Source: Escherichia coli | GTDB lineage: Bacteria; Pseudomonadota; Gammaproteobacteria; Enterobacterales; Enterobacteriaceae | Strand: one strand, 5' to 3' | Length of the DNA: 64,000 nucleotides | Assembly: GCF_041248615.1 (NCBI RefSeq) | Contig: NZ_CP158426.1 | Part shown: one piece after another, positions 16,051 to 19,124 of the stretch | Layout of the letters: every line of letters begins with the position of its first letter | Position numbering within the stretch: position 1 is the stretch's first letter | Translations under genes and position numbers: made by a program | The notes under the pieces: model-generated | What the model was told of the DNA's origin: nothing | Databases searched by the model: none | Seen by the model: the letters and a program-made list of their open reading frames with translations, nothing else

Positions 16051-16863
16051 CGACAGTTGATCCAGCCTGTCGCGAAAACCGGTAACAGAAATGGCCCGGT
16101 TATCGGCGCGCCAGCGATCTTTCGCGGCAGGAGCCGAACTTTGCACCCCAATTAATTGCCAGCCGTCATCGGTATGCAACATCAGAGGCGAACCGCTGTC
16201 ACCTGGCAAGGTATCGCACTGATGTGACATCACCGACGTTTGCGCCCAGCCAGTCACTTCACAGTTTTGATGACTGTACAACGTATCGAGATGATCTTCA
16301 GGGTATCCCGCCTGAGTCACTTTACGACCTGCTGCTTTTAATGCGGCGGTAAGCGCGGCTTTATCTCCCTCAAATAACGGCAACGGTGTAATGCCAGAAG
16401 GGGGATTACGTAGCACAATCAAACCGAAGTCCCACGGCGCAGCTGCGGGAGGAACAATCCAACCATCCCCATCTGCTTTTAACCGCTTTCCCAGTGTCGG
16501 GTCAACGCGGCCTTCTATGTCGTGGATCTCATAGCGCCAAAGACCTTTATTTGACACAAAACGCAGCGCCACCGCTTTATCGGCTTTACCCTTTGGCGGC
16601 GTCAATAAACAGTGTCCTGCCGTTAATGCCAGATTGGGTGCGATCAGCGTCGCCGTACATAAATTGCCGCTGGCCGTTTCCAGTTGGCCAACCGCATCCC
16701 ACGGTGATTGGGTCGTGTCATTCACTGGCACACGATCATCATGACCAAAAAACAGGGTGCTGACCTCATCGTTTGCCGATTTGGCAACGTCTGGTTTATC
16801 TGCAAACACAAAAGCAGACGTCAAACTAATTGCACCCAACACTACAGCAATGGTTGTACGCAT
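16042..16863 (-). CDS. ydgD: Secreted trypsin-like serine peptidase (S1 family), 273 aa
   Basis: Track ORF 273 aa with signal peptide, TAGHC histidine motif and GDSGSP serine motif. Confidence 0.85.
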
Positions 16864-16962
16864 ATCACACTCTGGTGGGTAATTATGATTATTAAAAGCA
16901 AACCCTCATAAATACTATAGACGGGACGGGATGAAAGTGGGAGTAAAATCAGATAACTACGA

Positions 16963-17046
16963 TCAGGAAAGATAAAAACGGGCGGCAATCAGTGCGCATA
17001 AAATAAGGATGATAAGAATGAACTCAAAGCGATAACGGCCCACCAT
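16963..17046 (-). CDS. ydgU: 27-aa hydrophobic small protein MVGRYRFEFILIILILCALIAARFYLS
   Basis: Manual translation; GGAGGG RBS 5 nt upstream of ATG; position between ydgD and asr matches my recollection of the K-12 small protein YdgU, identity not verified. Confidence 0.45.
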   Translation of the reverse strand: MVGRYRFEFILIILILCALIAARFYLS

Positions 17047-17138
17047 ACTACCCTCCGCTAAAGGCGGTGCTAAACGTTATCCGCTTAGCACCGTAATTTT
17101 CAGGCGCGAGGGGGCGCGCCAGCATTACTATTGATAAC

Positions 17139-17447
17139 TTACGCTGCGGGTTGTGCAGCAGGTTTTGCCGGTTGCTGATGGCTGTGTTTCTTGGCGTGTT
17201 TCTTCGCTGCCTGCGCTTTTTGTTCAGGAGCTTTCTGTTCAGCTTTGGCATTTTTATGATGCTTTTTAGCCGCCTGCGCTTTCTGGGCAGGTGCTGCTTT
17301 ATGCTGTTTTTTATGATGTGTGGTTTTCGCCGGCGCTGCTTTGGTGGTCGTCGCAGTCGGAGCAGGTGTGGTCGCAGTCTCTGCAGCAAAGGCAGCAGAA
17401 GACAGACCCATAGCAGCGGCAACAACCAGAGCTAATACTTTTTTCAT
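17139..17447 (-). CDS. asr: Acid shock protein, 102 aa, Ala/Lys/His-rich low-complexity periplasmic protein
   Basis: Track ORF 111 aa; start placed at [21 protein letters not shown] (complement ATG 17445-17447) giving signal peptide + KAQAAKKH repeats. Confidence 0.85.
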
Positions 17448-17829
17448 TGTCATACCCTCAATTTGTTTTTTCATTTAACCCCACTGCGGGGCCGTTGAAA
17501 TAACTATATCCCTGGGAATGGCAGACTTCCGTGAGTGGTTGGTTTCAGCGTGTAACGATATGTACAAACGCTGAATAAATTACAGCGTTGATAATAACGT
17601 ATTGTGACTTAAGGGAAATTTAGCTACCAATAATAGTAGTCTTGATCAGGTTAACTATTTTACTACTTACAAAGCGGTAGAATAACTGCGCATCAGTAAT
17701 AAATGACACACAGCAAAATGAATCCGTTTATTTGGGTACTTATAATCCTGATGACACTAGATGCGCTGCGGGAATTGGCTGGCGCTTCGTCTATTTTAGG
17801 ATGGCTATTAACGTTGGTTTGAGCAGGCA

Positions 17830-17871
17830 ATAAGTCCGGATGGGTATTTACCGCAGTCCGGACTTATTTTT
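17830..17871 (+). terminator. Plus-strand intrinsic terminator abutting the ynfM stop codon
   Basis: Perfect 11-bp stem ATAAGTCCGGA/TCCGGACTTAT with 16-nt loop followed by TTTT; orientation is plus although no annotated plus-strand gene lies upstream. Confidence 0.5.
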
Positions 17872-19124
17872 CAGGCGTGCAGACGACGATGCAAACGCGT
17901 CCCGACCAGCAGAGCAATGACCAGCATCAGAGCAATAAATGCGCCGACGCCGTTCCAGCCATAGTTATGCCAGAAAACACCACCCAGCGTCCCGGCAATA
18001 CTCGACCCCAGATAGTAACTGAACAGATACAGCGAGGAGGCCTGGCCTTTAGCGCGTTTTGCGCGGGGGCCGATCCAGCTGCTGGCAACGGAGTGGGCTG
18101 CGAAGAATCCGGCTGAGAAGAATAACATTCCGGCAAAGATCAGCCACAGCGAGCTAAATAAGGTCATCAGTAAACCAAACAGCATAACCCCCGTCGAAAA
18201 CAACATCACCGGACCGCGCCCATAGCGGGTGGTCATGGTTCCGGCTTTGGGTGAGCTCCATGTACCGGTCAAATAAGCCAGCGATAATAAGCCAACCACG
18301 GCCTGGCTGACATGCCAGGGGGAGAGCATCAACCGATAGCCGATGTAATTAAACAGCGTGACGAACGACCCCATCAGCAAAAAGCCTTCTGCGAACAATA
18401 ACGGTAATCCCCGGTCACGCCAGTGCAGACGAAAGTTGATAAACAACGTCTTAGGTCGCAGCGAAGTCGGGCGAAAATGGCGTGATTCAGGGAGGATTTT
18501 CCAGAACATTAACGCCGAGGCCAGCGCGAAACAACCGATTGCCGCCAGCGCAATTCGCCAGTTGAAAAAGTCCGTGAAGACACCGCTAATTAAGCGTCCG
18601 CTCATGCCGCCAATTGAGTTGCCGCTGATATACAACCCCATCGAAAAGGCCACGAAACTGGGGTGGATTTCCTCGCTAAGATAAGTCATGCCAACAGCTG
18701 CTACGCCACTTAACGAAAGCCCAATCAAGGCGCGCATAATCAAAATGCCGTGCCAGCTGGTCATCATTGTCGAAAGTAACGTACAAATGGAGGCCAACAG
18801 TAGCGCCGTGACCATCACTGGTTTGCGACCAATGGCATCGGATAACGGGCCAGTAAACAGCAAACCGATAGCCAACATCGCCGTGGAAATGGACAGTGAA
18901 ATACTACTGTTCGCGGGCGTTAAGCCAAACTCCTGCGAAAGCACCGGAAGGATAGGTTGCACACAATAGAGAAGTGCGAAGGTTGCCAGTCCGGCAGAGA
19001 ACAGCGCCAGGGTGACGCGCATAAATTGCGGCGTACCGCGTTTAATAAATTGATTTGGCTGAGAAATGCTTTGCTTGTCAGTGTCGCTTGCCGGAGCGCC
19101 ATCAACAGTTGTAGTACGGCTCAC
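17871..19124 (-). CDS. ynfM: MFS transporter, 417 aa
   Basis: Track ORF 417 aa, 12-TM MFS-like; synteny. Confidence 0.88.
   Translation of the reverse strand: MSRTTTVDGAPASDTDKQSISQPNQFIKRGTPQFMRVTLALFSAGLATFALLYCVQPILPVLSQEFGLTPANSSISLSISTAMLAIGLLFTGPLSDAIGRKPVMVTALLLASICTLLSTMMTSWHGILIMRALIGLSLSGVAAVGMTYLSEEIHPSFVAFSMGLYISGNSIGGMSGRLISGVFTDFFNWRIALAAIGCFALASALMFWKILPESRHFRPTSLRPKTLFINFRLHWRDRGLPLLFAEGFLLMGSFVTLFNYIGYRLMLSPWHVSQAVVGLLSLAYLTGTWSSPKAGTMTTRYGRGPVMLFSTGVMLFGLLMTLFSSLWLIFAGMLFFSAGFFAAHSVASSWIGPRAKRAKGQASSLYLFSYYLGSSIAGTLGGVFWHNYGWNGVGAFIALMLVIALLVGTRLHRRLHA

Follow-up and report, generated by a model that had tools for sequence, protein, structure and literature searches.

The intergenic region described here lies in a 64,000-nt stretch of the Escherichia coli chromosome (the window). 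It is preceded by the minus-strand genes ydgD, ydgU and asr, holds a small open reading frame (ORF) on the plus strand, and is followed by ynfM (minus strand) and ynfL (plus strand). The small ORF extends from an ATG at 17718-17720 to a TGA at 17820-17822, and its translation, as read from the window, is MNPFIWVLIILMTLDALRELAGASSILGWLLTLV. Its stop codon is followed by 7 nt (17823-17829), then by a stem in which 17830-17840 can pair with 17857-17867, and finally by a T-run ending at 17871. The coordinates of the ORF, its peptide, the 7-nt spacing and the perfect 11-bp stem, all of which had been given in the original prediction, proved exact on direct reading. The features of the locus are the following.

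17139..17447, minus strand: asr, which lies upstream in divergent orientation in Escherichia and Salmonella; elsewhere this place is mostly taken by another gene
17624..17640, no strand assigned: conserved upstream motif CTACCAATAATAGTAG, with core ACCATAATAG and a small dyad, recognised by its recurrence in relatives
17677..17683, plus strand: GTAGAAT, a candidate -10 element ~35 nt before the ATG, proposed from its conservation
17703..17717, plus strand: an upstream in-frame ATG with five extra codons (MTHSK), found in Escherichia only
17718..17822, plus strand: small-protein gene (34 codons plus TGA), recognised as an NF033695 member, by its conservation and by its Salmonella ortholog mia-38
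17829..17871, no strand assigned: predicted bidirectional terminator hairpin with an 11-12 bp stem, a 16-nt loop, a T-run on the plus strand and an A-run on the ynfM strand
17871..19124, minus strand: ynfM, a major facilitator superfamily (MFS) exporter gene and convergent neighbour, whose stop codon shares one position with the T-run, namely its final T

The reading frame contains two possible ATG start codons, and opening it at ATG 17703 would give a protein of 39 aa. In non-Escherichia genera, the position of MTHSK is occupied by a stop or by unrelated sequence, and the ORF begins at MNP; ATG 17703 is probably not the real start. Because every ortholog copy starts with an ATG at MNP, the Met of MNPF being the start in 26/26 orthologs, ATG 17718 is the right start codon, as had been chosen originally. 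It had also been pointed out that no clear Shine-Dalgarno sequence precedes this ATG, and the upstream sequence, acacagcaaaATG, indeed contains none.

Conservation of the small ORF as a coding sequence

In the 3 kb around the small ORF, 50 ORFs of at least 20 aa were listed. ORF length alone is uninformative, and the significance of the small ORF therefore comes from its conservation. The ynfM loci of 80 Enterobacteriaceae species were collected, and homologs were looked for in all six reading frames. In 26 of the 80 species, which belong to ~10 genera including Escherichia, Salmonella, some Citrobacter, Klebsiella, Raoultella, Kosakonia, Phytobacter and Pluralibacter, an ortholog adjoins the 3' end of ynfM and is encoded on the other strand. 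Outside Escherichia, this ortholog has a length of exactly 30 aa in all loci but one.

The variation among the orthologous loci is of the type expected for a coding sequence. Entropy at codon positions 1, 2 and 3 is 0.89, 0.33 and 1.33, respectively, which amounts to a three-base period, and the uncorrected pN/pS is 0.34 in frame vs 0.55-2.2 in the other five frames. Similarly, ungapped nucleotide identity is 0.65 within the coding sequence (CDS) vs 0.30, i.e. essentially random, in the 90 nt upstream. Between genera, dN/dS is 0.14 (Jukes-Cantor; dS is saturated at this distance), and the corresponding ratio within Escherichia is 0.17. An analysis of purifying selection in relatives had been proposed together with the original prediction, and the small ORF came through it with dN/dS values of ~0.14-0.17 between flanks that cannot be aligned. 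It is this conservation in relatives, rather than the length of the ORF, that settles its gene status. Judged from these comparisons, the small ORF is very probably a genuine protein-coding gene, belonging to the KPN_01571 family (NF033695).

Damaged alleles of the gene are tolerated: 73 of 5426 E. coli genomes, ATCC 25922 among them, carry a 13-nt deletion by which the ORF is cut short after residue 21, and frameshifted variants of the ORF occur in Salmonella.

Family membership, annotation, and translation in Salmonella

The peptide encoded by the small ORF matches NCBIfam entry NF033695 with 64.0 bits (E 7e-18) over model positions 1-29 of 30, the curated cut-off being 35 bits. This entry carries the short name trnsprt_adja_30 and the product name 'KPN_01571 family protein'; family members from Salmonella, Klebsiella, Cronobacter and Enterobacter score 64-72 bits on the same model. 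The window protein displays the MNP...DAxRE...G core of the family and, like the Klebsiella pneumoniae member, has a ynfM-type MFS neighbour. It differs from the family in that the Escherichia form has 34 aa instead of 30, owing to a C-terminal LTLV/LTLS extension, and in that its gene is devoid of the Shine-Dalgarno-like GGGAG/GGGG seen in Klebsiella and Raoultella.

As for annotation, we drew a sample spread across the 5422 E. coli RefSeq genomes in which the region occurs, and obtained 29 rows covering the region as a whole. A CDS is annotated under the small ORF in 28 of these 29 genomes, where PGAP names it either 'KPN_01571 family protein' or 'hypothetical protein'. An older annotation, in a genome with the same sequence as the window, covers just the C-terminal 23 codons. 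The K-12 MG1655 record has no gene at the corresponding place (1671105 to 1671001, minus strand), although the frame is uninterrupted there. The small ORF had originally been described as unannotated, which is accurate for the K-12 MG1655 record but not for nearly all E. coli RefSeq genomes, in which it is a PGAP CDS with a curated NCBIfam match. The small gene is thus already known, as an annotated family without assigned function, and a literature search returned no paper on the function of the KPN_01571 family protein or of mia-38.

The ortholog mia-38 of Salmonella Typhimurium 14028s is one of 130 unannotated ORFs that were identified by ribosome profiling in 2017 (Baek et al., G3, PMC5345727). 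According to Table S10 of that study (PMC5345727), its ribosome density is 8062 RPKM in LB and 3656 in rich defined medium, 647 at pH 5.8 and 0 in low Mg, its mRNA stays at ~800-1200 throughout conditions, and a putative ribosome-binding site (RBS) is listed for it (agg, spacing 10). The main text of PMC5345727 does not discuss mia-38. It is the positional ortholog of the window gene and encodes a 30-aa protein, MNPIIWVVFTLLALDAIREVMGVSSLTGLW, that scores 71 bits on NF033695. About half of its residues are shared with the E. coli protein, and the listed putative RBS is a further difference between the two genes.

We also searched supplement texts, each possibly incomplete, for signs of the small ORF. 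Neither its sequence nor its K-12 coordinates were found in the texts available for the acid-stress Ribo-seq study of Schumacher 2023, the Ribo-RET study of Stringer 2021 or PIRT-seq, and that of the Salmonella census of Venturini 2020 had no match to its sequence or coordinates. Likewise, the supplement text of the Term-seq study of Adams 2021, as far as available, lists no 3' end at the K-12 coordinates of the hairpin. As evidence on the expression of the small ORF in E. coli, these negatives are weak.

A different reading of the locus is that it encodes a non-coding sRNA, or that a chance ORF happens to stand before a plain ynfM terminator. ORFs of such size are indeed common by chance, the hairpin is placed where a ynfM terminator would be, and the supplement texts searched yielded no expression in E. 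coli. Against this stand the three-base period, the dN/dS of 0.14-0.17, the 30-codon length kept across genera between unalignable flanks, the match to a curated family, and the ribosome footprints in Salmonella. A scan of positions 16800-18400 against Rfam, with E values up to 10, gave only three chance-level matches, inside ynfM, and thus no sRNA family at the small ORF. On these comparisons, the non-coding or chance reading appears already largely refuted, and we consider it highly improbable.

The hairpin shared with ynfM and the upstream region

The hairpin that follows the small ORF presents in its sequence what is expected of an intrinsic terminator, namely a stable GC-containing hairpin followed by TTTTT. 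As RNA of the plus strand, it folds with -26.8 kcal/mol vs -12.6 +/- 2.7 for 200 shuffled sequences (z -5.2), 0 of which were as good, and as RNA of the minus strand with -25.4 kcal/mol (z -6.6). A twelfth pair, A17829-T17868, is possible. A simple terminator scan did not call the hairpin, its loop limit being 8 vs the 16-nt loop present here. The stop codons of the small ORF and ynfM converge with 48 nt between them. On the plus strand, the ynfM stop codon corresponds to 17871-17873, its final base pairing with the T at 17871 that closes the T-run. A hairpin is present between both stop codons in nearly all of the 26 orthologous loci, and within Escherichia, including E. whittamii, the stem shows paired changes on both arms.

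Because the hairpin folds equally well on the minus strand and abuts the ynfM stop codon, it is a predicted terminator common to the small gene and to the convergent ynfM. The original prediction had presented it as the small gene's own terminator, which does not fit a structure that folds at -25.4 kcal/mol on the minus strand directly 3' of ynfM. Bidirectional intrinsic terminators between convergent genes are well established, and the present one resembles them in consisting of one GC-cored hairpin flanked by an A-run and a T-run in a convergent gap of 48 nt. It departs from the typical arrangement in that the U-tract is good on the strand of the small gene only (TTTTT), the tail on the ynfM strand being UUAUUGCC and lying partly inside the stem.

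The proximity of the stop codon to this hairpin opens the way to a cis-regulatory reading, in which ribosomes near the hairpin would hinder the folding of the terminator, and the resulting readthrough, either antisense into ynfM or forward into leuE at paralogous loci (described below), would tune the expression of the exporter. A spacer of 7 nt separates the stop codon from the stem in E. coli (3-4 nt in Klebsiella, Raoultella and Pluralibacter), a paralog lies directly upstream of leuE, and 17-26% of the residues in the family peptides are leucines, all of which would suit such a role. However, among orthologs the distance from stop to hairpin varies from 3 to ~26 nt, purifying selection acts on the amino-acid sequence and not merely on the act of translation, and the small ORF has no same-strand downstream gene in the window. 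Moreover, the conserved core, which comprises residues 1-29, is positioned from the N terminus and not from the stop codon, Escherichia having 4 additional C-terminal residues and the LeuE-linked paralogs 12-14. We therefore regard cis-regulation by the act of translating the ORF as very unlikely. A related candidate, a leader or arrest peptide, was rejected, nothing but the terminator lying downstream on the plus strand and the C-terminal length varying by +4 to +14 residues. Since the conserved core is anchored to the N terminus while the C-terminal length varies, the sequences point to the mature peptide, rather than to a nascent-chain effect anchored to the stop codon, as the functional product.

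Upstream of the small ORF, GTAGAAT is invariant in five Escherichia species. Although the flanks have diverged, a -10-like hexamer is equally far from the ATG in Citrobacter (TAGAAT), Salmonella (TAATAT) and Klebsiella/Raoultella (TAAACT). Because this hexamer keeps its position despite the diverged flanks, its conservation suggests that the small gene may have its own promoter and a ~28-nt leader starting from the -10-like box at 17678-17683. A consensus promoter scan did not call GTAGAAT, and there is no good -35. Further upstream, the CTACCAATAATAGTAG motif is found again before the small ORF in Citrobacter, Salmonella, Kosakonia and Phytobacter, irrespective of which gene precedes it; a second -10 and a site for a regulator are possible roles. 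Shine-Dalgarno-like sequences are found in Raoultella (GGGAG), Klebsiella (GGGG) and one distant member of the family (AAGGGG), and neither in E. coli nor in Kosakonia.

Taken together, the gene would be transcribed separately, from the -10-like box at 17678-17683, with a ~28-nt leader that has no Shine-Dalgarno sequence and an ORF of 34 codons (the family norm being 30), and the hairpin would end both its transcript and that of the convergent ynfM. Three elements of this description are what we infer (promoter, leader length, termination at the hairpin); the rest of the gene identification comes from the sequence.

A helical peptide with a candidate exporter partner

Modelled by AlphaFold2 with the family alignment, the peptide is a single helix spanning residues 3-33 (mean pLDDT 90.6). 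The invariant or near-invariant positions are M1, N2, P3, W6, L11, D15, A16, R18, E19, G22 and S25. These conserved residues are not significantly clustered on one face of the helix, a clustering as strong being obtained in 2528 of 10,000 permutations. The only charges, D15, R18 and E19, are all in the middle of the helix, the ends of which carry none. The mean Kyte-Doolittle hydropathy of the window peptide is borderline (1.66), and Hessa-type insertion sums, calculated with no positional term, are +5 to +7 kcal/mol for the family (+5.25 for the window peptide), compared with -1.5 to -2.9 for AcrZ, YdgU and MgtS, and +2 for TisB. A search of Pfam with four family members gave no matches. The peptide had originally been described as a single predicted transmembrane helix; a single long helix is indeed predicted, but with D15, R18 and E19 in its middle and an insertion sum of +5 to +7 the transmembrane part of that description is weak. 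On these predictions, the membrane assignment of the peptide is insecure. If the helix is in the membrane, a partner or self-association would probably be needed to bury the charges.

The genomic contexts of the family bear on what such a partner could be. A profile search of 1.84 billion representative proteins gave 51 matches, and the KPN_01571 family is therefore narrow. Its members are found in four genomic contexts, with scores of 64-72 bits on NF033695 in all of them.

Context A: at the 3' end of ynfM, as in the window, K. pneumoniae and Kosakonia
Context B: paralogs of 42-44 aa, on the same strand as and just upstream of the LeuE gene, between yciY and yciI
Context C: in Cronobacter, between yebY and a phosphatase gene, with no adjoining transporter
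Context D: beside a LysR-type regulator gene, with no adjoining transporter

In context A, the upstream neighbour is asr in Escherichia and Salmonella, and an M32 carboxypeptidase gene in most other genera, where asr, if detected, lies beyond the carboxypeptidase gene. Context B is found in Enterobacter ludwigii, E. cancerogenus, Lelliottia amnigena and Huaxiibacter, the neighbour being the gene of the leucine exporter LeuE (NF008201, 315 bits). In Huaxiibacter, which has the LeuE-linked copy and no ynfM-linked copy, the paralog and leuE are separated by a gap of 49 nt without a hairpin. In E. ludwigii, a gene encoding an Exc2-family lipoprotein lies between the two. Adjacency to a transporter gene, evident at the window locus in a 34-aa protein gene convergent with ynfM, is thus not universal in the family, and ynfM itself occurs without the small ORF in 54 of the 80 species. 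Among E. coli RefSeq genomes, the small ORF has a median of one place per genome. The plasmid records matched by tblastn appear to be chromosomes, or pieces of chromosomes, deposited as plasmids (four of them measure 4.8-5.4 Mb, and all are non-mobilizable), and the single match in phages is a 1.7-kb fragment record. The KPN_01571 family is not on genuine plasmids or phages.

These observations bear on the reading, mentioned originally along with that of an sRNA, that the locus is a type I toxin-like gene. Its product would be a small hydrophobic peptide that damages the membrane, and weak translation signals or an antisense RNA would keep it from being made. The peptide is a short hydrophobic helix, it has the ~30 aa and the few charges within the helix that recall TisB, the E. 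coli ORF is without a Shine-Dalgarno sequence, inactivated alleles occur, and the family occupies at least four unrelated chromosomal contexts. However, the gene is present in one copy per genome, is absent from genuine plasmids and phages and is syntenic across ~10 genera, which together with its coding-type variation sets it apart from the toxin-like or sRNA genes that had been proposed. No Rfam sRNA lies in or beside it, no antitoxin RNA was found, and no repeat or antisense unit was seen in the 270-nt upstream region. Comparison with TisB by hhalign gives a probability of 1.3%, and no Pfam toxin family is matched. Furthermore, mia-38 is translated in ordinary rich media, which is unexpected for a tightly repressed toxin. 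Overall, a toxin of this kind is an unlikely product of the locus, although a less remote one than cis-regulation by translation of the ORF.

The reading that we prefer is that the selected product is the peptide itself, a predicted single α-helix of ~30 residues with an invariant MNP N terminus, hydrophobic flanks and an invariant D15-A16-x-R18-E19...G22 core. This helix would insert in the inner membrane or lie on it, and would act on a larger membrane protein through contact between helices. The foremost candidate for this partner would be the neighbouring metabolite exporter, which is YnfM here and LeuE in the paralogous loci. The idea of an exporter partner comes from the gene neighbourhood, since the ORF stays at ynfM while its other flank changes and occupies an operon-like position before leuE. 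It is weakened by the presence of ynfM alone in 54 of 80 species, by contexts C and D, which have no transporter, and by the 13-nt deletion alleles. We therefore advance only tentatively that the peptide is a membrane-associated helix that binds a larger membrane protein, with the adjacent exporter as the first candidate.

Small proteins that bind transporters are well known, examples being AcrZ with AcrB, MgtS with MgtA, and KdpF in KdpFABC. They resemble the KPN_01571 family in being single-helix peptides of ~30-50 aa encoded beside or near a transporter gene, and the position of the LeuE-linked paralogs suggests the head of an operon, which is where kdpF stands. On the other hand, they have no sequence relationship to the window peptide, and whereas each has a clean hydrophobic span with terminal charges, the charges of the KPN_01571 family are in mid-helix only. 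For this family the comparison rests on gene neighbourhood, and two of its contexts have no transporter. A bolder and more doubtful extension of the exporter-partner idea is that the 30-residue D-A-x-R-E helix might be an accessory or regulatory subunit shared by two unrelated exporter superfamilies, acting with the MFS protein YnfM in Escherichia, Salmonella and Klebsiella, and with the LysE-family protein LeuE in E. ludwigii, E. cancerogenus, Lelliottia and Huaxiibacter. If this were true, the buried charges would be satisfied only in a complex with the transporter.

In E. coli K-12, the small gene (1671105 to 1671001, minus strand) is a well-supported candidate for inclusion in the reference annotation. 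It would otherwise be one more uncharacterised small protein, and it does not define a novel type of system. That the KPN_01571 family is met repeatedly next to two different exporter genes provides a concrete hypothesis on how it may act.

Sequence elements between asr and the small gene

The region separating asr from the plus-strand small gene (17718-17822), together with the start and downstream flank of asr, contains the following features (window positions).

16963-17046, minus strand: ydgU, a known small membrane protein gene (27 aa) downstream of asr
17448-17474, minus strand: extension of asr from an in-frame upstream ATG at 17474
17481-17493: hairpin CCCCACTGCGGGG, just upstream of the asr ATG at 17474
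17552-17567, minus strand (that of asr): candidate RstA box TACATATCGTTACA
17624-17640: motif CTACCAATAATAGTAG, with the core ACCATAATAG

In Citrobacter, Salmonella, Kosakonia, and Phytobacter, too, the small ORF is preceded by the motif CTACCAATAATAGTAG, independently of the identity of the upstream gene. Its dyad arms are short and vary complementarily (CCCA/TGGG in Salmonella, CCTA/TAGG in Citrobacter). The motif may serve as another -10 element or as the site of a regulator. The candidate RstA box, which agrees with the RstA box consensus (TACATNTNGTTACA), lies between asr and the candidate promoter of the small gene. Translated from the ATG at 17474, Asr would have 111 aa, versus 102 aa in the annotated form. 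Downstream, ydgU is named either "stationary phase-induced protein" or "hypothetical protein" by PGAP, and an acid-stress Ribo-seq study describes it as the small ORF with the strongest acid induction (PMC10746267).

RNA 3' end within ynfM

On the other side of the small gene, Adams et al. 2021 tabulate, from Term-seq, an RNA 3' end inside the convergent exporter gene ynfM.

K-12 position 1669718, plus strand of K-12 (window about 19105): RNA 3' end in ynfM

This end lies 19 nt into the coding sequence, a hint that transcripts may be terminated early or processed right where ynfM begins.

Family members at other loci

Members of the KPN_01571 family (NF033695), to which the small gene belongs, also occur at the following places (coordinates of each comparison locus).

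About 3001-3135 in L085-L092 and L095, same strand as a LeuE-type exporter gene: paralogs of 42-44 aa
3001-3135 in L093 and L099: member in a Cronobacter-type context, with yebY on one side and a gene for a PphA-like phosphatase on the other
3106-3198 in L097: member next to a gene for a GcvA-like LysR regulator

The 42-44 aa paralogs, found in Enterobacter ludwigii, E. cancerogenus, Lelliottia amnigena, and Huaxiibacter chinensis, are flanked by yciY and the LeuE-type gene, with an Exc2-family lipoprotein gene inserted before the latter in some species. Huaxiibacter has the LeuE-linked copy and lacks the ynfM-linked one. Neither the Cronobacter-type context nor that of L097 includes a transporter. 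The L097 member, which has a GTG start preceded by an AAGGGG Shine-Dalgarno sequence, is extended to 65 aa by gene callers.

Alleles, loss, and replacement of the small gene

Within E. coli, the G28E allele of the small protein is very common among the protein clusters (P0012). Relative to the window, ATCC 25922 (L084) has a 13-nt deletion (GGCGCTTCGTCTA, 17773-17785) that leaves the truncated protein MNPFIWVLIILMTLDALRELAF; 73 of the 5426 complete E. coli genomes carry it, including several UPEC strains. In E. coli S19-141 (NZ_CP075640.1), the small gene and ynfM both seem to be lost: of the 461-nt query, only the 157 nt nearest asr match, and an annotated LysR-family gene adjoins asr.

In Superficieibacter, Intestinirhabdus, and relatives (L056, L065, L066, and L081), asr directly adjoins the 3' end of ynfM, and no small ORF intervenes. 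The Citrobacter freundii complex instead has a multi-helix hydrophobic ORF at this position. Given this asr-ynfM adjacency in some species and the multi-helix ORF in the C. freundii complex, the small gene has undergone loss or replacement several times.
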